Under the pieces are notes generated by a model. That model was given only the letters and a program-made list of their open reading frames with translations. It was not told the DNA's origin and did not search any database. The translations under genes and the position numbers were made by a program. From contig CAVRDX010000004.1 in the NCBI GenBank assembly GCA_963719945.1, positions 64,001 to 128,000 on the forward strand: 64,000 nucleotides of DNA, given 5' to 3'. Each line of letters begins with the position of its first letter. The first letter of the stretch is position 1. Of the stretch, positions 999 to 48,227 are shown in pieces. The stretch comes from an uncultured Thermoplasmata archaeon. Its GTDB lineage: Archaea > Thermoplasmatota > Thermoplasmata > UBA10834.

Positions 999-1097
999 CT
1001 CAATCTAATACTATCATAAATGACAGCACTGGCCTCGTGTCATACGATGAGCCCTGAGCGATACCCTACACAGTGGACGACTGATGTCGACGAGAGC

Positions 1098-23198: not shown

Positions 23199-23462
23199 TC
23201 AATGCTGGGAAAGGCAGTTAGGCGGAACTCGGTATTAAATCTTCGGTGATTCGCATCATGCGGAGCGCAAGAACGGATATCGACGGCTTCAATGAGGTTT
23301 TCGGGCGAGATTAATCAACGTCGACGGCTAGTGCGACCGACCGTATCCGCCCAACCTGGAGTGGAAAAATAAGGTGTATTCCAGACGATACCAGAAACGA
23401 AGGCTTTAAATATGTTCCAGACGCTGATTAGGTTGCTTCAGAAACCCCCTTTCGGTGGTAGG

Positions 23463-24455
23463 ATGGACTTGTCAGAAATTCAAGCTAGCTATTCTGGAAA
23501 CTCCGTTATTGACCGTATAAGGCGATCGCCGAGATGGAACAATGATGAGGGGGTTGCTTCGACAATCGGCACAATCATGTCGCTGCTTGTCTTCCTTACG
23601 TTCATGGGCATGTTTACCAACCAGTTCGTCCCTGTCTGGATGAGCGATAACGAAAGTACGCACATGGCAACTGTCATCCAGCAGATGATCACGCTCAAGT
23701 CCCAGATCGACGGGTTGGTCGCAGACTATTCGAACAGCCTTCTGGCCCCGACACCCATTTTCGTCCCGATAACTCTGCATGCTTCAGGCATACCGATATT
23801 CGCCGAACCTACTGCAGGAATATTACGATTCAGTCCTCAATCCACCAACGGTTACCCGTCGTTCAACGCGACATTCGCGGGAGATGAACAGACATTGAGC
23901 ACGGCTGATGACGGACACACTGGCGGATACGTCGACCTATATGCACCGAACAGGTACTTCATCGAGCAGCACCTGACCTATGATTGTGGTGCCCTGATAC
24001 TCAGCCAGCCGGATGGAGAATACATCATCGCGGGGCTTCAGTTCTCGGTCACGAATATCGTTACAGGCGCCGATACCAGCAGAGTTGTCAAATTGTCACA
24101 GGTCTCGATGCTGGGCCTGAACAAGACCATAGGCGGGACTGGCACGAAGGGGATATACGCGGATCTTCTCTATGCGAACACCAATGTATATGAAAGCACA
24201 GTAGGAGCTGACCTCACCCTCACTATAGTGAGCAAGCACGGAAACGCTTGGCTGACCTATTTCAACAAGGCGCTCAACAACTCGATGGCTGGCCTAACAT
24301 ACGGTGCAGACTTCGAAATGGGGCCTCTGACCCTGCATGACCAGATGGGTACTCAGTTCGATTACTACACATTGACAGTCACGATAAAGGATGTGAACGT
24401 CTTGGACCACACGCGCGCGACGGTCCAAGTGACACTGGGCGAGGTGGCCCCTTAG
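23463..24455 (+). CDS. large type IV pilin-like protein
   Basis: Class III-like signal NNDEG/VASTIGTIMSLLVFLTF…VPVW; first gene of the pilus locus. Confidence 0.75.
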   Translation: MDLSEIQASYSGNSVIDRIRRSPRWNNDEGVASTIGTIMSLLVFLTFMGMFTNQFVPVWMSDNESTHMATVIQQMITLKSQIDGLVADYSNSLLAPTPIFVPITLHASGIPIFAEPTAGILRFSPQSTNGYPSFNATFAGDEQTLSTADDGHTGGYVDLYAPNRYFIEQHLTYDCGALILSQPDGEYIIAGLQFSVTNIVTGADTSRVVKLSQVSMLGLNKTIGGTGTKGIYADLLYANTNVYESTVGADLTLTIVSKHGNAWLTYFNKALNNSMAGLTYGADFEMGPLTLHDQMGTQFDYYTLTVTIKDVNVLDHTRATVQVTLGEVAP

Positions 24456-24465
24456 AGGTGAGCTT

Positions 24466-26226
24466 TTGGCTGAAGCAGAGGCGAAGATTGAATATGACAT
24501 ACCCGTGAAAGCCCCCAAGCAGCCAATGGGTGCCCGCATCTGGCGCGGATACATCAACGCCGTAAGCAGACTCAAATCAGAGCCGATCAAAGTCAGATCT
24601 GCCAAGGGTGCTGCTGCTCGGAGGAAGCAGTGGAAGGACGGGAAGGGTTCACCATACACCGAGATCCCACCCATCACAGACCCAGATATCCAGGAGATGG
24701 CGTTCTATCCAGTGGTTGATCCGTTCAGCTATGTGAGAGTAACTTACAACGCAGTCACCAGTGATTACATATTGAGCGTGATCGAGCCAGTGCTCACCGA
24801 AGATGAAGAAGCGTTGATGAAGAAGATCAAGAACACCTTCGAGATGACCCTCGATTACGAGTGGGAGAAACTCGACCAGATGAACAAGAAGACCTATCTG
24901 CAGAGGAGTGTTGATAGCTACATCAGGTCGAGGGGGATCAGGCTCGAACCGATCTCGGAAGATAAGGTGAAGTACTTCATCACCAGGGATTTCGTCGGAT
25001 ATGGCCCCATAGATGCATTGATGAGCGACATCCATGTCGAGGACGTGTCTTGCGACGGCGTCGGCATCCCGCTGTTCCTCTTCCATAACAAATTCGAATC
25101 AATCAAAACCAATATCGTGTTCGAAGATGAGGACGACCTCAACTCATTCGTCATATCACTTGGCCAGAGATGTGGAAAGCAGCTCTCCGTCTCGAACCCA
25201 ATACTCGATGGTACGACACCGGAAGGGCACAGAGTCCAGGCAACTTATGCCAGAGAAGTGACCACGAGGGGTGCCTCATTCACAATCAGACGGTTCAAGG
25301 AGAAACCGTTCACGCCAGTCGAACTGATCAAGTACGGCACCGCGTCACCAGAGATAGTTGCGTATCTGTGGCTCAGTGTCGAACATGGAGAATCGGCCAT
25401 CATAGCCGGAGGCACAGCGAGTGGAAAGACGGCGACGCTCAACGCCATGTCGCTATTCATACCTCCTGGTGCCAAGGTCGTCACCATGGAGGATACTAGA
25501 GAGATCAACCTGCCTCATGAGAACTGGATACCTGGCACGACAAGATCTGGCTCCGGGGAGAGGGGACCTGACGGAAAGACCGCCGGGGAGATAGACATGT
25601 ACGACCTCGTCAGGGCGGCATTGAGACAGAGGCCGAACTACATCATCGTCGGAGAGGTGAGAGGAAAGGAAACCTACACCATGTTCCAGGCGATGGCGAC
25701 AGGTCACACGACCTTCTCGACCATGCACGCGGATTCCGTCAAAGGCATGGTCAACAGATTAGAGAACCCGCCGATCAACTGTCCCAGGATTCTGCTCACT
25801 GCCCTCAGGAATGTCATCATCCAGACACATGCAAGAGTCGGAATGGACATGGTCAGGAGAATCAAACAACTCATCGAGATCGTCGGTTTCGAACCAGAAA
25901 CGAACGAACTCATCAGCAACACGGTGTATGAGTGGGATCAGGCCACTGATAAGTTCATCTTCAAGGGTCACAGCTTCCTGTTCGACAAGATCATGGAGAT
26001 GAAGAACCTAACACATGAAGAGCTGCTGCAGGAATTCGAGCGGCGTGTTGATATCGTGAAATACATGGTGTCCAAGGACATGTCTAGCCATGTGGACATC
26101 TGGAACCTCATCAAATCATACTACAAGGATCCCAAGGCGGAGGCGGAAAGGGTTCGAAAGGACATGCGCCCAGCGGCCGCTCAGAGCGGTCTGAAGATGC
26201 CGACAGGAGGTGCTGAATCTGCCTGA
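24466..26226 (+). CDS. type IV pilus/archaellum-family assembly ATPase (FlaI/TadA-like) 1
   Basis: EDVSCDG, SFTIRRF, GGTASGKT, EDTRE, LRQRP…VGEVRG, TGH…TMHA. Confidence 0.92.
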   Translation: MAEAEAKIEYDIPVKAPKQPMGARIWRGYINAVSRLKSEPIKVRSAKGAAARRKQWKDGKGSPYTEIPPITDPDIQEMAFYPVVDPFSYVRVTYNAVTSDYILSVIEPVLTEDEEALMKKIKNTFEMTLDYEWEKLDQMNKKTYLQRSVDSYIRSRGIRLEPISEDKVKYFITRDFVGYGPIDALMSDIHVEDVSCDGVGIPLFLFHNKFESIKTNIVFEDEDDLNSFVISLGQRCGKQLSVSNPILDGTTPEGHRVQATYAREVTTRGASFTIRRFKEKPFTPVELIKYGTASPEIVAYLWLSVEHGESAIIAGGTASGKTATLNAMSLFIPPGAKVVTMEDTREINLPHENWIPGTTRSGSGERGPDGKTAGEIDMYDLVRAALRQRPNYIIVGEVRGKETYTMFQAMATGHTTFSTMHADSVKGMVNRLENPPINCPRILLTALRNVIIQTHARVGMDMVRRIKQLIEIVGFEPETNELISNTVYEWDQATDKFIFKGHSFLFDKIMEMKNLTHEELLQEFERRVDIVKYMVSKDMSSHVDIWNLIKSYYKDPKAEAERVRKDMRPAAAQSGLKMPTGGAESA

Positions 26227-27253
26227 AATCTCCGATGTCTTCATGAGAGTCGAAACCAAGAAGGGAGAGTACCTCAAAACGAAACTGACCCAGAGAGGGG
26301 AGGATATCGGGCCTCATGGAGTCCGATTGACCAAGGGTGCCGTCCCCGACTATGTCAGTTTGACCAATTATCAGGATTTCTCCTGGCGCATAATGGGCAA
26401 GTTCGCGAGCGATCGGATGACACCCGCCAATAACCAGGTCCTCGAAGAATCGCTCACCAAGGCCCATATGAAGATACGGGCCGAAGAGTACTATGCATAT
26501 GTACTCATGAGCACAGTCGTCGCGTTCATCATAGGAGTGGTCATAGCAGTGGTCGTCGGAATCATCCTCTTCGGGGTGATGGGCGTGTCATTGACACTCA
26601 GGATCATGATATCAGGTGCGGCGATCGGCCTGTTACCCGTTATGGCGTTCTTCATGCTTATGGGATCGCCTGGCGGAAAGGCAAAGTCCAGGGGCAGGGA
26701 CATCGACAAGAAGATCGCAGCTGCGATGAGCTTCATCTCTGCTATGGCATCAGCAGATGTCAACATTGATATCATATTCAAGGAACTTTCGAGGCAGACG
26801 ATCTACGGTGAGATCGCAGCTGAATCCTCGTGGATTACGCGTGATACGGAACTTCTCGGATTGGATATCTTGAGCGCCATCAAGAAAGCGGCCAAGAGGT
26901 CCCCATCGGCCAAGTTCCAGGAATTCCTGCAGGGAGTCATCACGACCTCCACATCCGGTGGGCAGCTCAAGCCGTACTTCCTGCTCAAGGCAGATGAATA
27001 CCAGAAAGAGAACAAGCTCGCCATGAAGTCCCAGATGGAGACACTGGGAATGCTCGCCGAATCGTTCGTCACAGTCGTCGTTGCTTTCCCTCTATTCCTT
27101 GTTCTCATCTTAGCGATCATGGCAATCGTAGGCGGAGGAGACTCGAGCATGATGATCACCCTCCTGTACCTTATCGTCATTGGAATGATCCCGATCTCGC
27201 AATTCGGATTCATATTTGTCATTTGGAACATGTCACAGGAAGGTGCGATGTAG
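26210..27253 (+). CDS. TadC/FlaJ-like membrane platform protein
   Basis: T2SSF-type YGEI…LGLD…SPS…F…SGG pattern plus TM helices. Confidence 0.88.
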   Translation: MLNLPEISDVFMRVETKKGEYLKTKLTQRGEDIGPHGVRLTKGAVPDYVSLTNYQDFSWRIMGKFASDRMTPANNQVLEESLTKAHMKIRAEEYYAYVLMSTVVAFIIGVVIAVVVGIILFGVMGVSLTLRIMISGAAIGLLPVMAFFMLMGSPGGKAKSRGRDIDKKIAAAMSFISAMASADVNIDIIFKELSRQTIYGEIAAESSWITRDTELLGLDILSAIKKAAKRSPSAKFQEFLQGVITTSTSGGQLKPYFLLKADEYQKENKLAMKSQMETLGMLAESFVTVVVAFPLFLVLILAIMAIVGGGDSSMMITLLYLIVIGMIPISQFGFIFVIWNMSQEGAM

Positions 27254-27254
27254 G

Positions 27255-28187
27255 ATGGCAGTGAAGAAGCTCAGCCAGGCAGAGCAGGAGAGGGCGATCA
27301 AGAAGATCCTGGCTACTGAGAAATCAGATAAGACCAAAACCATCCTGGTAGGCTCGATCGTCGCTGTGCTCATATGCGTGTTCGCAGCGATCATAGACAT
27401 GATAGGCAGCCTTTCGCTCCCATTCGACCCCATCGATTACATCATCTTTGGAATAATGGCATTCCTTGCCCCATACGGGTTCTACACATCAAGGAAGGAA
27501 AAGAACATCAGAGAGATCGAGACCAGACTGCCCGATTTCCTCAGAGATGTGGCGGAGGCAGGAAGATTCGGAATGACGTTGGCTGACTCGATTGTCGTCG
27601 CATCATCCGGCAGATACGGTCGACTGACCCCAGAGATCCAGAAGATGTCTGCACAGATAGAATGGGGGGTACCCGCATCTGAGGCCATCCGACTATTCTC
27701 GGAGAGGGTCAAGACGCCACTGGTCATAAGAATGACATCGATAATCAGGAAGGCCAACGACGCAGGTGGCAACGTCGCCGATGTCCTCACGATGGTTTCC
27801 CACGATGCCAAGGAATCCATCCTCACACAGGAGGAGCGGAATGTGACCATGTCGACCTATGTGATGGTCGTCTACATATCATTCTTCGTGTTCATCGCGA
27901 CCATATTGATCCTGGACCTGCAGTTCCTCCCTAAGATGGAGGAGGCGGGAACGACGGTGAACGATGCGGCTCAGGAGATGGGATTACAGGAGATTCCGGG
28001 AGTCAACATCAAGGTCGCCCTCATCGACGATATCTCATTCATATTCCTACTTGCGATAGTGGTGCATGCAGTTGGGGATGGGCTGCTAGCTGGTGTCATC
28101 CAGAAGGGGAGCATACCCATAGGAATGAGACACAGTTTCATCATGTTGCTTTCAGGATTCGTGTCCCTAAGGTTACTGTTTGCGTGA
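27255..28187 (+). CDS. TadB/C-like membrane platform protein
   Basis: LPDFLRDVAE…GMTL…YGRL…WG…GG pattern plus TM helices. Confidence 0.88.
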   Translation: MAVKKLSQAEQERAIKKILATEKSDKTKTILVGSIVAVLICVFAAIIDMIGSLSLPFDPIDYIIFGIMAFLAPYGFYTSRKEKNIREIETRLPDFLRDVAEAGRFGMTLADSIVVASSGRYGRLTPEIQKMSAQIEWGVPASEAIRLFSERVKTPLVIRMTSIIRKANDAGGNVADVLTMVSHDAKESILTQEERNVTMSTYVMVVYISFFVFIATILILDLQFLPKMEEAGTTVNDAAQEMGLQEIPGVNIKVALIDDISFIFLLAIVVHAVGDGLLAGVIQKGSIPIGMRHSFIMLLSGFVSLRLLFA

Positions 28188-29935
28188 TTGAGATGTCTGA
28201 AACAGAGCAGGCCAAGATTGAAATGGAACAACAGCCAAACGCGCCGGAAGCAGAGGCAACTCCGCCACCAGAGGAGGAGAAGGCGAAGAGCGGAGGCTTT
28301 CTGGCGGCGTACTATGGATTCCTGATGAAGATCAGGCCCAGGCCTATGAGGATCACAGTCATGAAGAACGAGATCCAGGTCGACACGAGTCAGATCACGG
28401 AGATACCAAAGCTGACCGAGTCGAATATAGATGAGGTCGAGATATCCCCGGTCAAGCAGAACTATTCATACGTCAGGATAAGGTACGACAACAAAGCCAA
28501 CGAATACACATATGAGGTAATCGAACCGAAGTTGCTGGGAGACGAGGCGGCTGTGGTCGCCCTCCTGAAAGAGACCCTCATAGCATCCGTCGAAAAGATG
28601 ACCGAGGAGGAACCTTCGGAGAAGGAGAAGTATCTGAGACGAATCATCGAGGAGCTGATGAACCTTCTCGGGATCTCACTGCACCCGATATCCAAAGAGA
28701 GGGTGATGTACTATCTTCTCAGAGATTTCCTCGGTTATGGTGTCATCGACGTGATGATGAATGAGCCCAATGTGGAGGATTGCTCGTGCGATGGGGTCAA
28801 CGTCCCGCTCTACATCTATCACAGGAAGTACGGTTCAATAAGGTCCAACCTCAGGTTCGAGAAGGAGGTGGAACTCGATGGTTTCGTGGTGTGGCTCGCC
28901 CAGAAGTGCGGCAAACACATCTCGGTCGCGAGTCCACTTCTGGACGCAACTATCCCGGACGGTTCTAGATTGCAGGCGACTCTGGGAAAGCATGTGACGA
29001 AGAGAGGTTCGTCATTCACCATCAGACGGTTCAAGGAGAACCCTTTCACCCCGCTTGACCTACTCAAGTTCAAGACGATGAGCACGGAGATGATGGCATA
29101 CCTCTGGATAGGCATAGAACACGGACAGTCGATGCTCGTGTGCGGAGGCACTGCGAGTGGAAAGACCACCACACTCAACGCAGTCCTCCTTTTCATACCC
29201 CCACAGATGAAGATCGTCTCGATCGAGGATACCAGGGAACTCAACCTTCCACATGAGAATTGGGTTCCGGGTCTGACCCGAGAAGGTTTCGGTGGGAAGA
29301 GCATGGTCACTGGGAAATCTTCCGGTGAGATCGACATGTTCGACTTGCTCACGGCCGCGATGAGGCAGAGACCTCAGTACCTGATGGTCGGTGAGGTCAG
29401 AGGTAAGGAAGCGTACGTCGTGTTCCAAGCCATGGCGACAGGTAAGACCTGCTATTCGACTTTCCACGCAGAGGATGTCCAGGCGATGGTGCACAGAATG
29501 GAAAACGACCCCATCAACCTGCCAAGGGCGCTGATCACAGCTCTCAACATCGTCATGCTGCAGGCTCAGGTCAAGGTCGGGACGAAGATGACCAGACGGG
29601 TCAAGTCATTGACGGAGATCGTCGGCATCGACCCTGAGACCGATGAGCTGATCACCAACTCAGTCTACACATGGAACCCAGCCGATGACACTTTCAACTA
29701 TAGCGGTCACAGCTACGTGTACGAGAAGGTCAGAATGGCCAGGAACTGGGCACCTCGAGAGATGGAAAGGGAGATCAAGAGGCGTGTCGACATTCTCGAG
29801 TACATGAAGAAGGTGAGCATCGACAACCACAGGAAGGTTGCCACAATCATATCTGCGTATTACAAGGATCCAGACAAGGTCATGAAGGAGGTCCGGGCGA
29901 AACTGGCAGAGACCGGACCACCTCAGCGAATCTGA
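28184..29935 (+). CDS. type IV pilus-family assembly ATPase 2
   Basis: GGTASGKT, EDTRE, MRQRP…VGEVRG; His box reads TGK…TFHA. Confidence 0.92.
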   Translation: MIEMSETEQAKIEMEQQPNAPEAEATPPPEEEKAKSGGFLAAYYGFLMKIRPRPMRITVMKNEIQVDTSQITEIPKLTESNIDEVEISPVKQNYSYVRIRYDNKANEYTYEVIEPKLLGDEAAVVALLKETLIASVEKMTEEEPSEKEKYLRRIIEELMNLLGISLHPISKERVMYYLLRDFLGYGVIDVMMNEPNVEDCSCDGVNVPLYIYHRKYGSIRSNLRFEKEVELDGFVVWLAQKCGKHISVASPLLDATIPDGSRLQATLGKHVTKRGSSFTIRRFKENPFTPLDLLKFKTMSTEMMAYLWIGIEHGQSMLVCGGTASGKTTTLNAVLLFIPPQMKIVSIEDTRELNLPHENWVPGLTREGFGGKSMVTGKSSGEIDMFDLLTAAMRQRPQYLMVGEVRGKEAYVVFQAMATGKTCYSTFHAEDVQAMVHRMENDPINLPRALITALNIVMLQAQVKVGTKMTRRVKSLTEIVGIDPETDELITNSVYTWNPADDTFNYSGHSYVYEKVRMARNWAPREMEREIKRRVDILEYMKKVSIDNHRKVATIISAYYKDPDKVMKEVRAKLAETGPPQRI

Positions 29936-30085: not shown

Positions 30086-33000
30086 CTACTGCTGATCCTC
30101 GCTGTTGTCGGATCCGTTGCCATTCTTATCCGAAGTCCCGGCTATGGGGGTCTTGATGATCTTCTTCGGGACCACTTTTCTGTCGATGGGCCTTCTGATG
30201 ACCATCTTCGGTGCGGCGACCTGGGAAGGACCCTGTTCCTGAGCCTTCTCGACCGGCGGGGCAAATTCGCGCGCAGACGATTCTGGCAACGCCTCGCCTG
30301 AGGACGGCGGGGTCGGCGGCTGTTCTCCCGGAGGCAGCTCCTTCTCGGCTCCGAAGACCGTTCCGCACTTGTGACATACGGTCGATTCCTTCGGGTTCAG
30401 TGTGCCACATACTGGGCATGGTATTGGCCCCTCCTTCCGCTTCTCCTCTTCCTTTGCGAGCCAATCTTCGAATGAGATATATGTCGGCTGAGTCACCCAC
30501 CACTCGTCGAACTTCTTGTCGCTGAACTTCTTGCCGAGTTCGGGCTTTGCCAACTCGCGGTACTTCGAGACCATCTCATCGTACTCGCCTCTCATCTTCT
30601 CGAGGTAGTCCTCCTCGCCGATTTCCTCGCCGACGAACTTCACACCGCAGTTGGAGCATTCGGTTGATTCTGCAGGCACCCATGCTCCGCATTCAGAGCA
30701 CTTCATCGTGCCTACTTCGAACTCGACTCCACACTTCGGACATCTCTTATTCGCAGCTGGGATGAAGGCACCGCATTCTCCGCACTCCACCAGTTTGCCG
30801 AGGCCACGGAAGTAGATATAGGCAGTGACTCCAAGAACGGAACCGACGATCACACCGATTATCGCGAGCCAGACCCACAACGCAATGCCGCGTCCCGCGA
30901 CTACGCCATCGACGGCAATCGTAGTCGCGAAGTCAGGCTGCTCCTCCTCTAACACTACTGGGACCAGCGTGTATTGACCGGTCTCGAGGTTAGCCAAGAG
31001 AGCCACTTGGAACGATGCCCTGCCTGAAGGGGATGTCGAAATCGCATCAGCGCGCGAGAGAACATCACCATCGGGACTCACGAGGTTCACGGACACGCCT
31101 GGCAGCCCAGATACAGCTATCTCGTCATTGATATTCTCTGGCTCAGTCGCACCGTAGTAGATATTCACGTGTACGAGAGCGCTTTCGCCCGCTTTGTACT
31201 CGCCCGTGTCCGAGTCCACTATCATTATTATGTGATATACGAGATCCACGATTTCGAAATCAATCGATGCTTCGTTGTTCGTCTCGTTCTTCTCATTCGA
31301 TTGGTTGTTGTCGTAGTCTACGAATACGAATATGGAATATGTCCCACTAACCGTCAGATTTATCGTATACTCCATTGAGACTTCTACCCACATCTGTGGG
31401 AGTATATGCTCCACCGAAATGCCAATCTCATATTCCAATGTCCCGAATACAATGGAGAATCTGATGCTGACATCGCCCGGGTTTGTCCCGCCAATGTTGT
31501 GGACGTTTGCCGTAATCGTGACCGTTCTCCCAAATTCGTGGGGATTCGAACCATCGTCCACTGAGATATCATCCGCATCGACTTTGAAGTCTGCACGGAC
31601 ATCAAGTACGGTAATCGTGGCAGTTTCGATGTTGTTTGTCAGATCCGTCTCAATCACTGTTTCAGATGGATTGGCTTCCATGGTGAAAGTGAACTCAGTG
31701 TCGTTCGTCACAAAGGGTGCGGAATATGCAAACTCAACCGCGAATTGAGATTCTTCATATAGAATCCCATACAGTGTCATGTTGAAAATTTCGCTCTCTG
31801 AATCGCTGTATTCCACGGTCAATGATACTACCGGGTTCGAGACAGGGGCCTCACCATTGTTGTACAGCACTGAACGAACATACAATATCTGACCACCAGG
31901 TACGCTTGACACGTCGGCAGGTGGGTCGCCGGCCATGAATCCTATCGCATCTAGCGATAGGTCAGCATAGCCCAAAACTCTGATCTCAACTGAGTCCTGG
32001 TTGTTGGCGAATGACAGCTCATCGAAATCCGGTGTTCCGCCGAGACCGCCGTTGACTACTACCCATATTGTGAAGATCCCGATGCTGTTCGGGATCCAAC
32101 CAACATCAACGGTTACCTGGCTGTTCGGTGTTAGAGTCGAAATCATAGTAGAATTCAGAAGGGTTGCCGTCGCCACATCTGTACCTAGCAAGAACTCAAC
32201 TAGAGCATCTTCTGCAATGGCATCACCGGTGTTCTCGATCACCGCGAAGATTGTGCATGAAGCATTGTACACGACATACGATGGCTCAGTCCAGATATAA
32301 CCAGTCATTACGCTGAGATCTGGGAGTATGACAGTGGACATCCTCAGCACTGCGAAGGTAGCATTCTCCGTCAGGGGCTCGGTGTATGGCTTGACACCGA
32401 TAGATATCGTCTCATCCGAGAAATGCAGGACTCCGTTACTCAAGTAAGTAGAGTTGATCTTGTAGTTGCCGATGAAGGTTGAGCCATCCGATGTCATTAT
32501 TGTTCCCAGGGAATTGATCCTTGCTATTCCAGATTCATTGCTGACTGCGCTCGACCAGTATGTATTGTTCACGAAGAACCATGCCGAGACGGTCGCTCCA
32601 GACAGCGCGTTGCTTCCGCCATCCAGAACAGTCACGTGAATCCATCTGTAGATCAATGCTTCTGCGTCTTCCGTTACTACTATTGATGGAACGCTGGAGT
32701 TCGTAAATTCTCCCAGTGCATGACCAGATAGTACTGGTGCCTGCAGAAGTGTGGAATCAACGACTACGATTCTGGCTGATGAATCCCATGAAGTAGTTAT
32801 CGTACCATCGAAGACCGTGTCTCTGAGAACCACGAGTGCATCATCCATCGCGACTATGTTGACACCGTTCAGAGTTGACCCTGTTACTTCGAGCGTCCCC
32901 TCACCCTTCACTATGAGGTCAATCGCGAGTTCGCTGTTGACCATAGAGTCCTCGATCACCAGGTTTGCTGTTCCATCTACATAGACGGTTCGCTCGTTCG

Positions 33001-34882
33001 CTGTTGATTGGACCAATTCAAAGACCGCATTCCTCAATGTGAGAGTCCCATCAGATGCCACGATGACATCGCCAGCATGATAGTAGCTCATATTCTCGAT
33101 GGTTAGATCTGGCGGAACCACCAGCCACTTGGATGGATCTGGGCTCTCCGCAGATATACCTTGGATATCTACCGTAATATCAAACTGCTGATCTGCAGAA
33201 GTCATTGCGGGATAGGCCGGGAACGAAAAGGTCTCTGTGGAAGTATGTGGCAGCGTATCAATAATAATACTGCCATTAATTGCATATGATCCTACAAAGA
33301 CTGAGTTGCCTGACCCACTACTTGTTATCATATCTGTGAGATAGGGGACTAATGCTAATCCACCAGTCTTTGTCACAAGGTAGCTCTCTGAAGTTTCACC
33401 CATGTAGTTCAGAACCTCGATGGGAGGAGTCTCGCTCAATCCATCCTCAGTGAAGTACAGGGCGGTTTCTCCCTCGAGCTCAGTGGTACCTGTGAATGTG
33501 GCACTGATAGTTGCGCCTGGGATCGGCACACCATATTCATCTCCAATTGTGACGCTCAACCATCGATAGATGTATGCGTCTCCTCCAACTGTGAACATCA
33601 ACCAGAGTCTGTCAAACTCCACCGAACCTGTCCCAGCAGCACCATTGTTAATAAATCGAATATCGGTGTCCAGTACGTCTCCAACTGTGGGAAGAGATGT
33701 TATTGGGAGTTCGTAGTACCATGTTCCAGATGGATTGGACAAAGAAGGTGTGATCCCAGTAGAAGCATAGCTTCCACCATCGGGAGCCCATTGGATTGAA
33801 TTGGTGCCTACGTATGTCGGTGAGACAGAATAACTTGCGACCAGAGTGATAGAACTCACTTCTAATGAAGCGCTCATCGGGGTTGTATCCCAAGTATCCA
33901 TAGCAAGGGTTTCCTGGGCTTCCACTTCATATGTCGAACCATCGAGGGTCGCTAGATTTGCGATATTCTGACCAGTAGTATCTGCCACACCTTTAGTCAA
34001 GGGACTTGCAGGTGCCGTATTTTCACCATCGGATGCAATGGCAGTCGAACGTGACGCATATGATCCAGAATATTCATCGAAGGTACAGCCATAGAGATAT
34101 GCATGCGACTTTTCGCTCAAGACTATCATATTATGAGAGGCCAAATCGGCTACGGTAAGATTGGGGTTGAAGTCAACGCTGATGTAGCTGTTGACTGCCA
34201 ACAGGGTCGATTCTCCACTCAGTGTGAGGTTGCTGGCGGCAAGACCTAGGGAAGGATATTCGGGAAGATTCGTGATCTCGGAGTCGAACATCATCATTGA
34301 ACCGTCAATGACTGAGATCGCCGCCCCGTCATCGGCGGAATCGATCGCGATAGTCGGAGATCCTGAGAGATACAGGGATATATCCTCTGCAGGTAGCGGC
34401 TCGATGGTACTGTCATATAGTATGAGCTCGCCACCGTTCTGTACCGTGATCGTGCCTGGGAAACTGAAAAGCGACTTCTCCGAAGCTACGAGAGTTCCTC
34501 CATCGATGTTTACATCTAGGAACGGCCACGGATCGATCTGGTCCAGGTAGGTGGTGAGTGTGCCATGATCAAGAGTCATGGTTCCACCAGTAGTGACTGT
34601 TACCGTACGTTGAACACCCGAGTTGCTGATCACCAGCAAAGCAGCGTTCCTTATAATCAGCTCCCCACCACTGACGAGAACATCACCATCTACAGGCTGG
34701 TTGACATTCTCGACTGTGTATGTGCCGGCAGTTACAATCAGGTCACCGATTGGTGTCTGTGCAGCGGTAGGCGAGGGATTCGACATTACGAATAACCCCG
34801 CGAAGGCCGACAGCACGAATGTGGCGACAATCAATGCGCTCAGAGATTTGTTGGCCTGAAGAGGGCCAGCTCTGTGTTCCAT
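30086..34882 (-). CDS. very large membrane-anchored surface protein (beta-helix-like and CARDB/Ig repeats) with cytoplasmic zinc ribbons
   Basis: Signal peptide; E..E.NN CARDB-type motifs; TM helix LWVWLAII…; six CxxC motifs (three ribbons) after the TM helix. Confidence 0.85.
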   Translation of the reverse strand: MEHRAGPLQANKSLSALIVATFVLSAFAGLFVMSNPSPTAAQTPIGDLIVTAGTYTVENVNQPVDGDVLVSGGELIIRNAALLVISNSGVQRTVTVTTGGTMTLDHGTLTTYLDQIDPWPFLDVNIDGGTLVASEKSLFSFPGTITVQNGGELILYDSTIEPLPAEDISLYLSGSPTIAIDSADDGAAISVIDGSMMMFDSEITNLPEYPSLGLAASNLTLSGESTLLAVNSYISVDFNPNLTVADLASHNMIVLSEKSHAYLYGCTFDEYSGSYASRSTAIASDGENTAPASPLTKGVADTTGQNIANLATLDGSTYEVEAQETLAMDTWDTTPMSASLEVSSITLVASYSVSPTYVGTNSIQWAPDGGSYASTGITPSLSNPSGTWYYELPITSLPTVGDVLDTDIRFINNGAAGTGSVEFDRLWLMFTVGGDAYIYRWLSVTIGDEYGVPIPGATISATFTGTTELEGETALYFTEDGLSETPPIEVLNYMGETSESYLVTKTGGLALVPYLTDMITSSGSGNSVFVGSYAINGSIIIDTLPHTSTETFSFPAYPAMTSADQQFDITVDIQGISAESPDPSKWLVVPPDLTIENMSYYHAGDVIVASDGTLTLRNAVFELVQSTANERTVYVDGTANLVIEDSMVNSELAIDLIVKGEGTLEVTGSTLNGVNIVAMDDALVVLRDTVFDGTITTSWDSSARIVVVDSTLLQAPVLSGHALGEFTNSSVPSIVVTEDAEALIYRWIHVTVLDGGSNALSGATVSAWFFVNNTYWSSAVSNESGIARINSLGTIMTSDGSTFIGNYKINSTYLSNGVLHFSDETISIGVKPYTEPLTENATFAVLRMSTVILPDLSVMTGYIWTEPSYVVYNASCTIFAVIENTGDAIAEDALVEFLLGTDVATATLLNSTMISTLTPNSQVTVDVGWIPNSIGIFTIWVVVNGGLGGTPDFDELSFANNQDSVEIRVLGYADLSLDAIGFMAGDPPADVSSVPGGQILYVRSVLYNNGEAPVSNPVVSLTVEYSDSESEIFNMTLYGILYEESQFAVEFAYSAPFVTNDTEFTFTMEANPSETVIETDLTNNIETATITVLDVRADFKVDADDISVDDGSNPHEFGRTVTITANVHNIGGTNPGDVSIRFSIVFGTLEYEIGISVEHILPQMWVEVSMEYTINLTVSGTYSIFVFVDYDNNQSNEKNETNNEASIDFEIVDLVYHIIMIVDSDTGEYKAGESALVHVNIYYGATEPENINDEIAVSGLPGVSVNLVSPDGDVLSRADAISTSPSGRASFQVALLANLETGQYTLVPVVLEEEQPDFATTIAVDGVVAGRGIALWVWLAIIGVIVGSVLGVTAYIYFRGLGKLVECGECGAFIPAANKRCPKCGVEFEVGTMKCSECGAWVPAESTECSNCGVKFVGEEIGEEDYLEKMRGEYDEMVSKYRELAKPELGKKFSDKKFDEWWVTQPTYISFEDWLAKEEEKRKEGPIPCPVCGTLNPKESTVCHKCGTVFGAEKELPPGEQPPTPPSSGEALPESSAREFAPPVEKAQEQGPSQVAAPKMVIRRPIDRKVVPKKIIKTPIAGTSDKNGNGSDNSEDQQ

Positions 34883-34992
34883 AAGTTCACCCACCCAGAT
34901 GCTGGGTATTGCGAATCAAAGTAAGCAGTTCGGCTATATAAAAAGCTATTTGCCATATTTTCATGGCAAAGAAGGGTTCGAGGAGGTGCTGG

Positions 34993-36003
34993 CTAAGCCA
35001 CCTTTTTCTTTACGATCTTCTTGACGAAGACCTGTGGCTTCCTTGGTTCCTCGATGGCCTTCACTTCATCGGAGCTGTCCCCTCCATCCGATTCTGGCTG
35101 TGTCTCCCTCAAATCGGAGCCACATGCGTAACACATTATCGCATCCTTGCTGACCATCGTCTTGCACTTGGGACAGGACACCTCATCCTCCTCGGATGAT
35201 CCGGCATCGTCCTCTTGGCCAGATGACTCTTCAGAGATCTCCTCGGGCTCGACATCTCTCAACTGGTGACCACAGGAATAGCACATTATCGCATCCTTGC
35301 TTATGACAGTCTTGCACTGGGGACACTCTATCTCGTCGTCGCCCAGATCAGGCTTGGCCGTTTCCATGACATCGGACTTCTCCATAGGGGTGCTCTCGAT
35401 CACTTCTGTCTGCCTGCTGAGGAGTTTCTTTGCATCTTCCGAGAGTCTCTCGCGATCATTCCGGACAGATTCCTCTTCTGCTGCCAGGGAACGCTCACGG
35501 GCTATGAGTGCATCACGCCTCGATGCCACCTGCTCCATCAGCCTCTGGAGTTCCTCCTCGGACTTCTTCATCTGATCTTCCCGGTCGAGGAGTGCTTTGC
35601 GTTTTTGCGTCGCCTCGGACTGGGCGCGCGACGACTCCACCAACGAGGTTTCGGCTTCCCGCTCCCTCGCCTCCGCGCTCGTGAGTGCGGTCTTCGACCG
35701 TTCCTCGAGTTTTAGGACCTCAGCATTCTTCGCATCCACCTGAACGGCCTTGGCCTGGACGGACTCCTCGCGGGCTGTGATCTCCGCATCCTTGTTCTCG
35801 AGGGACGATTCCTTTTCTCTCAAGGAGTCCTCCTTCTCGCGGATCCTCTGCTCGCTGGACTCCAGCTCAGCCTTCATCTTCTGAAGCTCTGACTTCTGGG
35901 CCTGAATATCCTGGTCTTTCTTGCGGACCTCGGCCTCCTGGGTCCTCAAGCTCTTGACTGCGTCTTCAATTATCTGCGAAATGCTCTGGTCTTCTGTCAT
36001 CAT
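34993..36003 (-). CDS. coiled-coil protein with two tandem zinc ribbons
   Basis: About 190 aa of heptad repeats; CPxCKTxxSKDAIMCYxCG occurs twice. Confidence 0.8.
   Translation of the reverse strand: MMTEDQSISQIIEDAVKSLRTQEAEVRKKDQDIQAQKSELQKMKAELESSEQRIREKEDSLREKESSLENKDAEITAREESVQAKAVQVDAKNAEVLKLEERSKTALTSAEAREREAETSLVESSRAQSEATQKRKALLDREDQMKKSEEELQRLMEQVASRRDALIARERSLAAEEESVRNDRERLSEDAKKLLSRQTEVIESTPMEKSDVMETAKPDLGDDEIECPQCKTVISKDAIMCYSCGHQLRDVEPEEISEESSGQEDDAGSSEEDEVSCPKCKTMVSKDAIMCYACGSDLRETQPESDGGDSSDEVKAIEEPRKPQVFVKKIVKKKVA
35132..35326. repeat. intragenic direct repeat (duplicated zinc ribbon)
   Basis: CACATTATCGCATCCTTGCT is identical at 35132-35151 and 35282-35301; similarity extends about 45 bp. 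Confidence 0.8.
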
Positions 36004-36119: not shown

Positions 36120-36833
36120 TCAAGTGCTGAGCAACGGACCCAGCACCTGCATTCCGGATTTGTTGACTTCGATGGCGTGTTTCTCCATGCTGTGCTCCGC
36201 AGCTCTCATCTTCTCGACCTGCAGGTATCTCACCAGCTTACCCCTCTGGCGGTCAAGGCCCAGCATCACGATGCCGTCTGCGAGAAAGCCTTCGTTTCCG
36301 AGAAGCTGCGATTCACCAGTCAACGACCGTTCCATGATTATGAATGAAGTGAGGTTGTTGTCTCTGAGCATCTTGAAGAAGTAGAACATCTTCTTCCTCA
36401 TGTCCTCAGCGTTCTCCATCAGGGAGTAGAGCGCGCCTAACGAATCGAGGACGAATATCGAGAACTTGTCTCCGTGAGTCCTCCTGAAACGCTGTATCAT
36501 CTTCTCTATGAAGAGTACATAATCCGTCTGTGCCGAATCGCCGATGACCTCATCGATCTGATCGATCTCCCTGAGGTCAGTCATATCCGATATCTGCATC
36601 TTTGCGGAGAGTTTCACGCCCATGCTCTCCATGTTCTTCAGGTGACTGTCGACCGTCTCTTCGAGGGTGGCGTATAGGCCGAACTCGTTCTTGTCCCTCA
36701 GGTAGTGCGACATCAGGGAATAGCAGAAGCTCGTCTTCATCGATCCCGGGGGACCCGTGACGAGTATGACTTTGGGTCTCTCGATGTCGTTCTTGAAAAC
36801 CTTTTCCAAACCTGGTATCGAGTCTCTAAACAA
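36120..36833 (-). CDS. single-domain KaiC/RAD55-like ATPase
   Basis: IPGLE, GPPGSMKT, TLEE, VLDSL, FLADG, VEKMR. Confidence 0.88.
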   Translation of the reverse strand: MFRDSIPGLEKVFKNDIERPKVILVTGPPGSMKTSFCYSLMSHYLRDKNEFGLYATLEETVDSHLKNMESMGVKLSAKMQISDMTDLREIDQIDEVIGDSAQTDYVLFIEKMIQRFRRTHGDKFSIFVLDSLGALYSLMENAEDMRKKMFYFFKMLRDNNLTSFIIMERSLTGESQLLGNEGFLADGIVMLGLDRQRGKLVRYLQVEKMRAAEHSMEKHAIEVNKSGMQVLGPLLST

Positions 36834-44040: not shown

Positions 44041-44100
44041 CAAGAAGCCGATTGACTCGTTGGCATATTAGAGTTGTCACTCGGACAACGAGGATGGATA

Positions 44101-44204
44101 TGGAGCCACTGGAGGGTCTCGAACCCCCGGCCTGCAGTTTACGAAACTGCCGCTCTCTAGCGGCACCTGCATGGTCGCAGGCGCAACCGCTGAGCTACAG
44201 TGGC
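44101..44204 (-). tRNA. tRNA-Thr(CGT) with a 29-nt D-loop intron (44157-44185), CCA encoded
   Basis: Acceptor GCCACTG/CAGTGGC; anticodon arm GCAGT-TTCGTAA-ACTGC; perfect BHB around the intron. Confidence 0.93.
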
Positions 44205-44339: not shown

Positions 44340-46481
44340 ATGGTTAGCGATCTCCGAATTCCTGAAGGGATAATTGTCAGGACTGCCAAAGGAGGCCCTG
44401 ATTCGCTGAAGGGCATACTGTCCGACCTGAAACAGTATAGCTTCACTGGTTACCTGAAGGTCACGCTCGAGAAATCCGTGATGAACTCCACGGGTTACAT
44501 CGTAGTGGAATTGGGAGCGCCCGTCATGGCGATCTACGAGTTCGAGAAATCGAAACCCAGGGAGCTGCGGAGGATATACACCGGAGAGAAGTCACTGAGA
44601 TTCATACTCGAGGATTCGCAAGACAAGGGATCCAACATCGAACTCCACAGCCGTGTCCCCAAGGAGGAGTTCGAGCGTAGGTTCCCTGACGCCTATATCG
44701 CTGGAGGAGCCGCCCCCAAACCGACCACTAGGACCCCCCGGGACGAAGCGAAGGTCAAGGAAGAGGTGGAACTCGATCCGTATGTCGAGAAGATTGAGCA
44801 GTGGCGCAGGAAGGGGTACAAGGTAGATACGCTTGAGACGGCGAGGGAGCAGGGAGTCCAGGAGATCTCGAAGGAACTTACAGGTTTCGAGCGCGACACG
44901 AACAAGCTCAGGCAGTTCGAGACGATCCTGAACAACTTCCCGATACTGGGGCTCGAGCCGGAGATCGCGGAGATAAGGACCAAACTGAACGATCCCACTC
45001 GAATCGCTGAGATAGAATCGGATATCGAATTCCTGCAGGAGAAGATCCGCCGGAAGATACAGAAGAGGAAGGCGGAAGAGGATTCGATAAAGCAGGAGAT
45101 GGAACGGAAGAAGAGGGATGAGAAGGCGTCGGACGTGTACGACCTGATCCTCAAGTACCAGACGACGCCCGAGGGTGAGGAGGCCGTGGAAGCCGTGAAG
45201 TGCCCCATCTGCGGCGGAGAGCTGGAAGATGGACAGTGCAGCAAGTGCGAGAAGGAGCAGAAGTTCACCAAGACATTCCCGACAGAGATGAGGTTCGACA
45301 ATTTCGTGATAGGCCCTGGCTCGAAGTTCTCGGCAGCGACCGCAGTCGCTGTAGCTGAGAATCTAGGCAAGGCATACAATCCGCTCCTGATATTCGGTGC
45401 AACTGGCCTGGGAAAGACGCATCTTCTATCAGCCATCGGAAACCACATACTGAACAAGAACAGTGGATTGACCGCCCTATACGTGCCAGCCGACAAGCTG
45501 GTCGATGCCGTTGAGCACAGTACGACTCCTGACGCCATCAGGATGTTGAGGGAGGAACTGAAACGTGCCGAACTCCTGCTTGTCGACGACATGCAGTTCC
45601 TCGCCGCCAATGAACAAGCTCAGGGTGAGATGGTCCACATCATCGATTCGCTCATCGACTCTGGAAAGCAGGTCGTGCTCGCTAGTGACAGACTGCCTAC
45701 ACAGATTCCGGGCTTCAGCGACAGACTGAATGCCAGAATCCAGAAGGGGTTGACCGTCGATCTGCAGCCGCCGGACGAGAGCACCAGGATCAAGCTCGTC
45801 AGGGTGAAGGCGCATGAGAAGAAGTTGAAGCTCAGCGACGAGATAGTCAAGTACATCGCCGAAAAGGTCACCCAGAATGTTCGCGAGATAGAGAGCACTC
45901 TGAACAAGGTCGTTGCGTTCTCCACCATAATGAAGATGGAAATCGACATGACCCTCGTCTCGGACATACTCAAGCCGCTCGCTCCCGTGCAGGAGACCAG
46001 GAAGGAGATCATGAAGGAGGTCAATGTTCAACCTGGCCATTGCTACCTGATAGAGGAGGAGAAACCGACCTACAGCAATGTCTTGCTGGGGCGGATGATG
46101 GCCGAGAACTATAGAGGGCTCATAATAACGAGGATGAACCCAAAGAGAATAAGAGATGATTTCGAAAAGGACCCTCGAATACTCTGGCTTACCGACAAGG
46201 ATAGTTCGATGGAGAAGACCATCCCGCCATCCCTGGAGATGATAATCCACAAGATCCAGGAATTCATTTCAGAGGAGGGGAACGGCATGGTCGTCCTCGA
46301 TGGCATACAATATCTCATCAGCAGCACCAATTTCGATTCGGTGCTCAGGTTCCTGAGGAGCATAATCGATGAGATGTCAGAATCGAAATGCATATTTGCG
46401 GTATCGATTAGCCCTGAAACCATGAAGGAGCAGGAGATATCGATAATGGAGAGGGAGATGGAGGTCCTGAACCTGACCTGA
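44340..46481 (+). CDS. DUF2226/PATAN-like + coiled coil + zinc ribbon + DnaA-type AAA+ + DUF835 fusion protein
   Basis: FTGYLKV…GYIVV..G; CPIC/CSKC; FDNFVIG…YNPLLIFGATGLGKTHLL…LLLVDDMQFL…ASDR…NVRE; C-terminal GLIITRMNP…WLT…LDGIQYL…NF. The ORF-track start overlaps the tRNA; ATG 44340 is the likely start. Confidence 0.88.
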   Translation: MVSDLRIPEGIIVRTAKGGPDSLKGILSDLKQYSFTGYLKVTLEKSVMNSTGYIVVELGAPVMAIYEFEKSKPRELRRIYTGEKSLRFILEDSQDKGSNIELHSRVPKEEFERRFPDAYIAGGAAPKPTTRTPRDEAKVKEEVELDPYVEKIEQWRRKGYKVDTLETAREQGVQEISKELTGFERDTNKLRQFETILNNFPILGLEPEIAEIRTKLNDPTRIAEIESDIEFLQEKIRRKIQKRKAEEDSIKQEMERKKRDEKASDVYDLILKYQTTPEGEEAVEAVKCPICGGELEDGQCSKCEKEQKFTKTFPTEMRFDNFVIGPGSKFSAATAVAVAENLGKAYNPLLIFGATGLGKTHLLSAIGNHILNKNSGLTALYVPADKLVDAVEHSTTPDAIRMLREELKRAELLLVDDMQFLAANEQAQGEMVHIIDSLIDSGKQVVLASDRLPTQIPGFSDRLNARIQKGLTVDLQPPDESTRIKLVRVKAHEKKLKLSDEIVKYIAEKVTQNVREIESTLNKVVAFSTIMKMEIDMTLVSDILKPLAPVQETRKEIMKEVNVQPGHCYLIEEEKPTYSNVLLGRMMAENYRGLIITRMNPKRIRDDFEKDPRILWLTDKDSSMEKTIPPSLEMIIHKIQEFISEEGNGMVVLDGIQYLISSTNFDSVLRFLRSIIDEMSESKCIFAVSISPETMKEQEISIMEREMEVLNLT

Positions 46482-46496: not shown

Positions 46497-48227
46497 TCAC
46501 ATGGTCTTCTTCGCCATCTCTTTGAATTCCCTCAACTCTTTGAGCGCCTGCGAATAGTTCTTCGATTTCGTCAGGTTGGTCACCGACTTCAATATCGTCA
46601 ACATAGGCGTTATGTTCACGTTCTTTATCTTCGCGTCCACTAGCAGGTGACGAGCGCTCTTGATCTCCTCGGTGAGACGCTCTGGGATGGCTGCATTGAG
46701 ACGCTCGTTCGTCTGCTTGATGAGCATCTCGGCCTTATCGAAGTCCCTGGAATCGAACGCTTTGTTGGCTTCCACGAAGGATGCGCGAGCCTCTCGTGTA
46801 TCGAGTATGAGCATCTCGCAATCCGCAAGCAATGATTTCAAAGAATTGAGCCTCTTCTTCGCTTCGTTGTATCTGCCCGTGATCGGAAGGAGTTCGTTCG
46901 AGACTTTATCAGAGTAGATGAACGCGGCCTCCGCATCCCCACTGGATTTGGCCTTCTCCATCTCGCTTATGTAGGTCATCGATCGGGATACTTCGCCACC
47001 GAGCTCCTTAGCCACTTGGACCTCTTCCCTCAGCTGGTCGAGGTCATCTGTAAGCCTGGCATCTATTGTGTCCATGAGGATCGCGCGAGCCGTGTTCACG
47101 AGCTCAAGCGCTTTCTCTAGCTGCCTATCTCGCCCAGCTGCGGCTGCGTCATCGATGAGCTGCTTGCTCTCAGATATCTCAATCTCCTTCTGCATGGCAA
47201 GAGACAGGAGCGGTTTCATCTCGGCCACCATCCTCGCGAGCTCCTTCCCCTTGTCCTTCGAATCTGCCCTCATGGGGGTGATCTTCGGGGCTGGGGCCGC
47301 CTTGGTTATCTCCGGTTCAGGTATCCTTGGCCTAGGCTCTTCCTTTAGATGACGGAATGGTTCTGCCTCGACGGGCTCTTGCTTCGATTGAGGTTCTGGT
47401 TCCGTTACAGGTTCGGGTTCCGCCTCATCTTTGGCCTCGTCCTTCTTGCGCTTCTTCAGCCAGCCGAATGGTGAACGGCCCTTCTTCTCCTTGGGGGCCT
47501 TCTCTGGCTCTTCAACCTCATCAGCAGATGGTTCCTCTGCCTCCTCGGGTTCGACCTCGACCTCCGGCTTCATGGCCGGGACTTCTCTGACAGTCGGGAC
47601 TTCGGCGACTGGAGGCTCGATCTCTGGCTGAGTCGACGCTTGCTCAGTCGCCTCCTCCTCGGACTCGACGAACATGGCGCCACAACCGGGGCAGGTTTTG
47701 GCATCGACATTGACAAGCGTGTTACATGCAGGGCACTGGAATACTTCTGTGCCTTCGTCCGAGAAGATGACACCGCAACTCGAACAGGAGGATGCGGTCA
47801 TGCTCACCTTTGCACCGCACTCAGGACATGAGAATTGGTCTTCTTGGACGGTTTCGACCATCGGTATCTCGGATGTAGTCTCATCCTCGACAGGTGCCGA
47901 TTCCTCTGTGTCTGGCCTGACATCAGATGTGGATCGCGAGAACAGGGAAGCGGCGGTCGCAGCGGATTCATCCGAGACTTCTTCCTTCGGAGTCTCGGCC
48001 ACCTTGGGCTCACCGCGAGGGGGCGATATGACTTCGCGAACAATCGCATCGATCGATTTCTTTGGAGCCGGAGCGCTAGGCGTAGGCTGAACAGTCTGCT
48101 CAACAGGCTCATCGACTTCCATATCGAATATGGACAAATCTGTCCCACAGAACCCGCACTTCTTCGATCCGGGCTGGAGTGGAGAATCGCAGATGGGGCA
48201 AAGTTTGTCCCCGCTAGAACTTGGCAA
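46497..48227 (-). CDS. multi-zinc-ribbon protein with Pro/Glu linker and C-terminal helical repeats
   Basis: Three double-CxxC ribbons; about four helical repeats of roughly 66 aa. Confidence 0.8.
   Translation of the reverse strand: MPSSSGDKLCPICDSPLQPGSKKCGFCGTDLSIFDMEVDEPVEQTVQPTPSAPAPKKSIDAIVREVISPPRGEPKVAETPKEEVSDESAATAASLFSRSTSDVRPDTEESAPVEDETTSEIPMVETVQEDQFSCPECGAKVSMTASSCSSCGVIFSDEGTEVFQCPACNTLVNVDAKTCPGCGAMFVESEEEATEQASTQPEIEPPVAEVPTVREVPAMKPEVEVEPEEAEEPSADEVEEPEKAPKEKKGRSPFGWLKKRKKDEAKDEAEPEPVTEPEPQSKQEPVEAEPFRHLKEEPRPRIPEPEITKAAPAPKITPMRADSKDKGKELARMVAEMKPLLSLAMQKEIEISESKQLIDDAAAAGRDRQLEKALELVNTARAILMDTIDARLTDDLDQLREEVQVAKELGGEVSRSMTYISEMEKAKSSGDAEAAFIYSDKVSNELLPITGRYNEAKKRLNSLKSLLADCEMLILDTREARASFVEANKAFDSRDFDKAEMLIKQTNERLNAAIPERLTEEIKSARHLLVDAKIKNVNITPMLTILKSVTNLTKSKNYSQALKELREFKEMAKKTM

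Follow-up and report, generated by a model that had tools for sequence, protein, structure and literature searches.

A DnaA-type AAA+ module between PATAN-like, zinc-ribbon and DUF835 domains in Thermoplasmatota: a candidate switch for a KaiC- and pilus-associated machine

The window analysed here is a stretch of 64,000 nucleotides from an uncultured Thermoplasmata archaeon (GenBank assembly GCA_963719945.1, contig CAVRDX010000004.1, positions 64,001 to 128,000, read on the forward strand). A gene on its forward strand (44340..46481) encodes a protein of 713 amino acids (aa), hereafter DnaA-DUF835, in which a PATAN-like N-terminal domain, a linker, a zinc ribbon, domain III of the bacterial replication initiator DnaA (DnaA-III) and a DUF835 domain follow one another. 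With moderate confidence, we interpret this protein as a self-assembling, ATP-dependent switch or adaptor that serves an envelope-associated machine of KaiC-like, zinc-ribbon and pilus-type components, and not as a replication initiator. This interpretation builds on the domain make-up of the protein, its intact catalytic motifs, their conservation and a clustering of genes that survives rearrangement of the locus.

DnaA domain III is generally regarded as a defining mark of replication initiation in bacteria and is presumed to be missing from archaea. In the Thermoplasmatota it is widespread and intact, with catalytic residues under strong purifying selection, and it occurs without the DNA-recognition domains and in signalling or pilus-type contexts. 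No paper was found that describes the DnaA-DUF835 family or characterises its architecture functionally, that mentions DUF835 together with DnaA, or that describes a DnaA-type AAA+ partner for DUF835. Literature searches for DnaA in Thermoplasmata or Thermoplasmatota and for Bac_DnaA/PF00308 returned nothing relevant, those for PATAN with DnaA returned chance co-occurrences only, and the term 'DnaA-like' in the archaeal literature refers to fusellovirus or primase-associated ATPases. New are the lineage-specific state of the residues that contact single-stranded DNA (ssDNA), the comparison of two arrangements of a gene supercluster that includes a pilus-type operon, the bacterial operons pairing PATAN genes with DnaA-III proteins, and a fusion of DnaA-III to a PilB-type ATPase in another Thermoplasmata lineage.

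The DnaA-type core and its relatives

The ATG at 44340 is taken as the start of the gene since the N-terminus MV(T/S)DLRIPEG that begins there is shared by the full-length homologs, of which more than 120 were found (65-92% identity). A longer open reading frame with a TTG start at 44052 was considered and is unlikely for the same reason. The base composition is unremarkable.

The AAA+ module, consisting of domain IIIa and the lid, covers residues 315-546 (45282..45977, forward strand). Pfam assigned residues 316-474 to Bac_DnaA (PF00308; E-value 3.1e-48, 164 bits, profile positions 4-162 of 162), and NCBIfam matched the DnaA model TIGR00362 at 4e-80 over profile positions 54-345 of 437, ending before domain IV, with a score of 270 bits that lies below the curated equivalog cut-off of 343.9. 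Domain IV (Bac_DnaA_C, PF08299) was not found by Pfam even at E-values up to 1, its place being occupied by DUF835, and domain I (DnaA_N) gave no Pfam match in the 713-aa protein. The absence of both domains, noted in an initial annotation made from the sequence alone, is thus borne out. A BLASTP alignment to full-length Escherichia coli DnaA (sequence from NC_000913) was confined to the AAA+ region, where it ran over 234 residues without a gap at 38% identity; the alignment to Bacillus subtilis DnaA (8BTG) was likewise gapless over 257 residues (E-value 1e-57). These alignments located the Walker A lysine at K359, the Walker B aspartates at D416/D417, the sensor I aspartate at D450, the box VII arginines at R462/R466 and the sensor II arginine at R515.

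Residue conservation was counted in 79 orthologs drawn from 80 species loci, namely 41 close relatives and 38 more distant ones. In 77-79 of the 79, the Walker A lysine, both Walker B aspartates, the sensor I aspartate and the arginines R462, R466 and R515 are unchanged, which argues for a working ATPase and oligomeriser. The residues by which DnaA contacts ssDNA behave differently. The computed alignment pairs V211, K243 and R245 of E. coli DnaA with E392, N424 and Q426, which confirms the E, N and Q that the initial annotation had assigned by hand; the third position says little, because B. subtilis DnaA itself has a glutamine there. Among the 41 close relatives the equivalent positions hold E/D/G/S/N and S/N, and a hydrophobic or basic residue occurs there in none. 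In the 38 distant orthologs, which include metagenome-assembled genomes (MAGs) of Methanomassiliicoccales, the V211 position is I/V/L in 25 and the K243 position is K/R in 33. The loss of these contacts is therefore specific to the lineage of the query and not a property of the family, so that the initial claim holds for the former and fails for the latter. The division of the family into members with and without these residues constitutes a natural experiment on their role outside replication.

Seen against the bacterial DnaA proteins of known structure (8BTG and 8BV3 from B. subtilis, 2Z4R from Thermotoga maritima, and 1L8Q, 2HCB and 3R8F from Aquifex aeolicus), the gapless domain III and lid are alike in all the motifs listed above. 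The differences lie in the missing domains, the ssDNA contacts replaced in the query's own lineage, the sub-threshold TIGR00362 score, the flanking PATAN-like, zinc-ribbon and DUF835 parts, and the host, an archaeon with Orc1/Cdc6. Hda and DnaC/IstB are relatives without domain IV in the initiator and loader AAA+ clades, and the 713-aa protein has a weak Pfam match to Hda_lid. Nevertheless, its scores against these families are far lower, at 103.9 bits for Hda (TIGR03420, 8.6e-30, cut-off 194.8) and 53 bits for IstB (4e-14) in NCBIfam, and Hda is a short, stand-alone domain III protein, unlike the multidomain query.

Residues 300-560, used as query in an exhaustive search without a profile, retrieved 19,341 relatives, and among the best 150 of these, bona fide bacterial DnaA proteins with domain IV are interleaved with forms that lack it. 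Two trees were calculated, one with FastTree from 220 domains and one with a quick IQ-TREE run under LG+C20 from 71 domains. In both, the query falls in a clade with support of 97 and 92, respectively, in which nearly all members are DUF835 fusions and which is placed inside a short-branch DnaA radiation, and E. coli Hda, DnaC and the genome's own Orc1 proteins form long branches outside it. The AAA+ domain thus does not group outside the DnaA/Hda clade, and the HMM (hidden Markov model) scores and trees together support a DnaA-type module rather than one of the Hda, DnaC/IstB or Orc1 type. Since neither run resolved the backbone of the radiation, no donor and no number of transfers can be named. 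The direct capture of a chromosomal DnaA by this archaeon, as initially proposed, is not shown by these data; DnaA modules without domain IV form a wider family.

The extent of this family was assessed by a locus scan with the DUF835 part as query and one genome per species. A total of 80 loci were found, in MAGs labelled Thermoplasmata, Thermoplasmatota, Methanomassiliicoccales or Methanomassiliicoccaceae, and Candidatus Saliniplasma. The DnaA core lies directly upstream of DUF835 in all 80, with the N-domain seen as well in 72, which rules out an assembly chimera as the source of the fusion. When 401 genomes of the phylum were sampled, 44 of them, from 27 of the 162 genera, matched Bac_DnaA at E-values up to 1e-30, some with as many as eight copies; four archaeal control genomes had no match at this threshold. 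The other architectures seen in the phylum comprise HEAT repeats followed by DnaA-III, DUF835 and a zinc ribbon, a form with about 900 residues preceding DnaA-III and zinc ribbons, in some cases with the same N-domain, a 438-aa DnaA-III form, and a fusion of DnaA-III to a T2SSE ATPase; domain IV was seen in none of them. Two larger Thermoplasmatota genomes (G162 and G089) carry 6-8 separate genes with Bac_DnaA domains, encoding 256-1511 aa, a lineage-specific expansion of the module.

The flanking domains

The initial annotation had placed DnaA domain III between PATAN-like, zinc-ribbon and DUF835 parts, and this arrangement was recovered by Pfam, NCBIfam, the alignments and the structure models. 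The certainty of the individual assignments differs. The N-terminal domain (residues 1-125, 44340..44714, forward strand) was assigned from an AlphaFold2 (AF2) model, its matches to other predicted structures and Pfam searches with family members. Its score against DUF2226 (PF09987) is 14.7 bits and so below the cut-off of 22, and of 20 family members five matched DUF2226 (best 4.7e-5) and one matched DUF4388/PatA_N (PF14332) at 7.5e-4. The AF2 model, based on an alignment of the N-terminal 125 residues of 20 sequences, has a predicted local distance difference test (pLDDT) value of 90.4. It superposes on predicted clusters of DUF2226 with a template modelling (TM) score of 0.79 and on those of PatA_N/PATAN with 0.74-0.75, both sides of the comparison being predicted models, and also on clusters of Thermoplasmatota proteins that carry this domain in direct fusion with DUF835 or with long coiled-coil proteins. 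No solved structure was matched by Foldseek in the PDB at E-values up to 1e-3, and the wide VIA search gave a best Z of 5.5. An hhalign comparison of the N-domain profile with a bacterial PatA_N protein, encoded next to one of the tandem DnaA-III genes described below, was not significant (E-value 0.12), and the query's own genome holds no significant paralog of the domain. The label 'DUF2226/PATAN-like' is therefore reasonable as one that rests on predicted folds, with sequence scores below threshold.

The N-domain is followed by a charged K/E/R-rich linker of helical type, presumably a coiled coil, which is partly conserved in the homolog alignment (residues 126-284, 44715..45191, forward strand). 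The zinc ribbon named in the initial annotation has the pattern CPxC...CxxC (residues 285-306, 45192..45257, forward strand) and a weak Pfam match to DZR. Its cysteines C288, C291, C300 and C303 are conserved without exception across 15 homologs, some of which share 35% identity.

The C-terminal assignment to DUF835 is firm (residues 575-707, 46062..46460, forward strand; PF05763, 1.8e-28, 99.5 bits against a gathering threshold of 33.1). The model of this domain (pLDDT 90.5) matched RecA/KaiC-like folds in Foldseek with probability 1.0 and TMq values of 0.57-0.65, namely FlaH (4yds, 0.59), the CI domain of KaiC (8dba/4tl7), SSO2452 (2w0m), Elp4/5/6 and Rad51. Inspection of residues 560-713 revealed no GxxxxGK[ST] P-loop, so that the domain is a degenerate member of this fold without Walker A. 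The published label 'inactivated KaiC' fits this result: in PMC5847659, DUF835 is listed as an inactivated KaiC (iKaiC) output domain of archaeal response regulators, and work on iKaiC DUF835/MEDS by Makarova, Galperin and Koonin (2017) is cited for it. The query resembles these iKaiC proteins in its C-terminal domain and in having a KaiC ATPase as a conserved neighbour. It differs in the partner of the domain, which is a DnaA-type AAA+ module here and REC or REC-PAS in the known architectures listed (REC-DUF835 and REC-PAS-DUF835).

Gene neighbourhood and DnaA modules in other contexts

The nearest and most constant neighbour is a convergent gene (46497..48227, reverse strand) for a 576-aa protein with zinc ribbons recognised by Pfam and a conserved C-terminal helical domain. 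It adjoins the DnaA-DUF835 gene in 76 of the 80 species loci and is kept when all other synteny is lost. On the other side of the gene lies a triad on the reverse strand. It begins with KaiC237 (36120..36833), a single-domain KaiC-like ATPase with the Walker A motif GPPGSMKTS (PF06745, 6.6e-34), continues downstream with a coiled-coil protein that carries a double zinc ribbon according to Pfam (34993..36003), and ends with a surface protein of 1602 aa with CARDB domains and a zinc-ribbon tail, likewise from Pfam matches (30086..34894). Convergent on the surface-protein gene is a type-IV-pilus-like operon on the forward strand (23412..29935), in which Pfam identified, after orf347, T2SSE, T2SSF, T2SSF and T2SSE/PilB3_C. 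Just upstream of this operon, a 793-aa protein with an N-terminal helix-hairpin-helix and a C-terminal KaiC-like/DUF7504 domain is encoded on the forward strand (20180-22561).

Among close relatives (66-75% identity) the entire 20-kb gene order is common, which says little by itself. At 35-38% identity, the orthologs are flanked by gyrA-gyrB-thiC on one side and by the convergent zinc-ribbon gene and the genes for adenosine kinase (AdoK), Ogg and Lhr on the other. A rearranged lineage is more informative: gyrBA, AdoK, Ogg and Lhr are gone from its locus, and the DnaA-DUF835 gene is followed by the convergent zinc-ribbon gene, the KaiC237 ortholog, the coiled-coil zinc-ribbon gene and the gene for the giant surface protein. 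In four rearranged genomes the orthologs of the pilus-type operon come next, again convergent on the surface-protein gene, with ATPases at 65-73% identity. The pilus-type operon, the surface protein, the coiled-coil zinc-ribbon protein, KaiC, the zinc-ribbon partner and DnaA-DUF835 thus form a set kept in two orders, and their clustering survives rearrangement. Of the 34 loci with full flanks, 30 contain an ortholog of KaiC237 (67-73% identity) in these flanks, covering both gene orders; such orthologs were found upstream with gyrBA-thiC in between in 33 loci and directly downstream without gyrBA in 12. The initial annotation had inferred a KaiC network. The conserved, Walker-A-bearing KaiC237 supports this proposal in part; the annotation had missed the pilus-type operon in the same supercluster.

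Some rearranged loci contain extra genes between the DnaA-DUF835 gene and its zinc-ribbon partner. In two of them (L108:2386-3543 and L117:8184-9383) the insert consists of a further stand-alone DUF835 gene and a second, divergent KaiC paralog at about 29% identity, and in a third (L122:5630-6286) of a divergent KaiC paralog only.

Outside the DnaA-DUF835 family, DnaA modules without domain IV occur in contexts of a similar kind, which the initial annotation had likewise not noticed. A protein of another Thermoplasmata lineage (P0158, identical to the L021 protein; L021:1447-3732, L132:8001-10421) has DnaA-III fused directly to a PilB3_N-T2SSE ATPase. Its gene sits between pilin-like genes (Pilin_N, DUF7289) and two T2SSF genes, in an operon that includes a response regulator. 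In bacteria, proteins of about 650-690 aa contain DnaA-III in tandem, again without domain IV, their nearest named relatives being found in Cloacimonetes and Gemmatimonadota. Their genes stand at the end of operons, directly after PatA_N genes (L129:7262-10067 and L130, both metagenome contigs, and the contig of P0273). Two types of such operons were seen, one with the order REC-CheA-CheW-CheC-TPR-PatA_N and the other with CheC-TPR-PatA_N/TPR-Roadblock(MglB-like)-Arf-like GTPase. The PATAN domain of Synechocystis PixE has been reported to bind the pilus ATPase PilB1 (bioRxiv 10.1101/2021.06.11.447907). Taken together, the PilB fusion, the PatA_N-linked bacterial operons and the PixE-PilB1 binding suggest, from gene context, that PATAN, DnaA-III and pilus motors have come together repeatedly. 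The query is comparable to the pilus-motor regulators PixE and PixG of Synechocystis through the PATAN/DUF2226-like predicted fold of its N-domain, the pilus-type operon in its conserved supercluster and the bacterial DnaA-III paralogs beside PatA_N genes. It differs from these regulators in having no REC domain, in its sub-threshold sequence similarity, and in its archaeal PilB3-type context as opposed to the cyanobacterial type IVa pilus.

Proposed role and competing explanations

From these observations we infer the oligomerisation of the protein, all of its protein contacts and its cellular output as follows. The DnaA core, catalytically competent by sequence, would oligomerise through its arginine finger upon ATP binding, as in DnaA. 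DUF835 would dock on the KaiC-like ATPase or, in the manner of ArlH/FlaH, on a PilB-type ATPase, the PATAN-like domain would touch the pilus motor, and the zinc ribbon would join the set of zinc-ribbon partners. The machine served in this way would consist of the KaiC-like ATPase, several zinc-ribbon proteins, the giant CARDB surface protein and the pilus-like operon with its two PilB-type ATPases and two PilC-type proteins. A precedent for such an arrangement is the motor core of the archaellum, ArlH/FlaH-ArlI-ArlJ, in which a KaiC-like protein is bound to a T2SSE ATPase. By analogy, the locus resembles it in encoding a KaiC-family protein together with T2SSE and T2SSF genes and in the match of the DUF835 model to FlaH; it differs in that archaellin or other arl genes were not identified in this analysis.

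If this interpretation is true, the assembly mode of an initiator-clade AAA+ module can be reused as a switch for protein machines, and the idea of KaiC as a 'hub' in archaea gains a concrete set of partners. Genome annotation would also be improved, as database entries of DnaA-DUF835 proteins are labelled 'DnaA/Hda family protein' or, wrongly, 'chromosomal replication initiator protein DnaA', the latter name being carried by many such genes in archaeal MAGs.

Several observations weigh against the interpretation as a switch. About half of the family keeps the DnaA residues for ssDNA contact, for which a pilus- and KaiC-related function gives no account and which leave room for a nucleic-acid role in those lineages. 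The PATAN assignment consists of predicted-structure matches and sub-threshold sequence scores, with an E-value of 0.12 in the direct profile comparison. In the lineage of the query, the KaiC triad lies 7.5 kb away from the DnaA-DUF835 gene, across gyrBA-thiC-Yip1. Large-scale synteny is generally high among these genomes, and a part of the clustering may be inherited gene order and not the result of selection. Among the listed sequencing runs, no RNA run containing the gene was found. Finally, the trees leave the relation between the archaeal and bacterial forms without domain IV unresolved.

A broader version of the same idea can be put forward only tentatively, and is considered possible rather than probable. 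In this version, PATAN and a DnaA-type AAA+ module without domain IV would constitute an old, unrecognised signalling device of bacteria and archaea, represented by the Che/MglAB-type operons in the former and by the DnaA-DUF835 and PilB fusions of Thermoplasmatota in the latter. Its ATP-dependent oligomerisation in the style of DnaA would gate type-IV-pilus-like machines instead of melting DNA. In Thermoplasmatota, an inactivated KaiC domain would have connected this device to a pilus-type apparatus that works with KaiC and handles a giant surface protein.

The strongest competing explanation, still rather unlikely, is the main one of the initial annotation: the protein would serve the KaiC signalling network of archaea as a generic adaptor, without a specific tie to the pilus-type machine. 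DUF835 would then plug an ATP-gated DnaA oligomer into KaiC hexamers, with a regulatory output such as stress or timing. Such a role fits the description of DUF835 as an inactivated KaiC output domain in PMC5847659. It is also consistent with KaiC237 as conserved neighbour, and with the genome totals of 14 DUF835 and 14 KaiC-family matches, which indicate a large network. In one further case, at C4:171350-172494 outside the window, a KaiC gene is followed by a DUF835 gene 90 bp later. Against a generic adaptor stand the pilus-type operon and the surface protein, which accompany the KaiC triad in both gene orders, and the direct fusion of DnaA-III with a PilB-type ATPase seen elsewhere in Thermoplasmata; the link of PATAN to pilus motors fits a specific machine better.

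A role linked to replication or DNA is improbable. The DnaA core would in that case still act on DNA or on replication factors close to gyrase and an origin, for instance to regulate the cell cycle. Such a role would account for the hydrophobic and basic residues retained by most distant orthologs at the V211 and K243 positions, for the zinc ribbon, and for gyrB-gyrA, which lie upstream of the DnaA-DUF835 gene in 46 of the 80 loci. As dnaA and gyrB are classically clustered in bacteria (as in the E. coli locus), a transfer together with gyrase is conceivable. In contrast, DnaA domains I and IV are missing, the query has E/N/Q at the ssDNA-contact positions, and its close relatives share this loss. 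Moreover, the rearranged lineage loses the adjacency to gyrBA and keeps the KaiC, zinc-ribbon and pilus genes, and the genome carries two ordinary Orc1/Cdc6 genes on the same contig, about 40 kb and 108 kb downstream of the DnaA-DUF835 gene. Because the adjacency to gyrBA is dispensable and Orc1/Cdc6 is present, the tie to an origin and the cell cycle that the initial annotation had considered is not supported.

Outside the window, the second Orc1/Cdc6 gene is followed after about 240 bp by a codirectional gene for a 256-aa DUF835 protein (C4:217783-219485). In two distant relatives, large internal insertions separate conserved blocks of gyrase open reading frames, namely of gyrA with about 1250 aa in one (L045:14383-18126) and of both gyrA and gyrB in the other (L047:1-3408 and L047:3293-5833), a pattern that inteins would give.

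A function as an anti-phage defence or mobile-element ATPase is very improbable. In its favour, defence islands are known to contain AAA+/STAND-like ATPases that have zinc ribbons and KaiC-like partners, and PADLOC gave a weak match to mad8 (2.6e-4). However, the PADLOC matches (1.7e-5 and 2.6e-4, with 0 significant stretches) are of the generic P-loop kind and well below family level. The gene is also present as a single chromosomal copy, keeps its synteny in at least 80 species and has neither an integrase nor a transposase in its vicinity.

Apart from these loci, ARAGORN, which gave no intron-bearing tRNA at 44101-44204 just upstream of the DnaA-DUF835 gene, reported a tRNA of undetermined type on the forward strand near the beginning of the window (903-999), which has a length of 97 nt and a four-base 'cata' anticodon and probably contains an intron.

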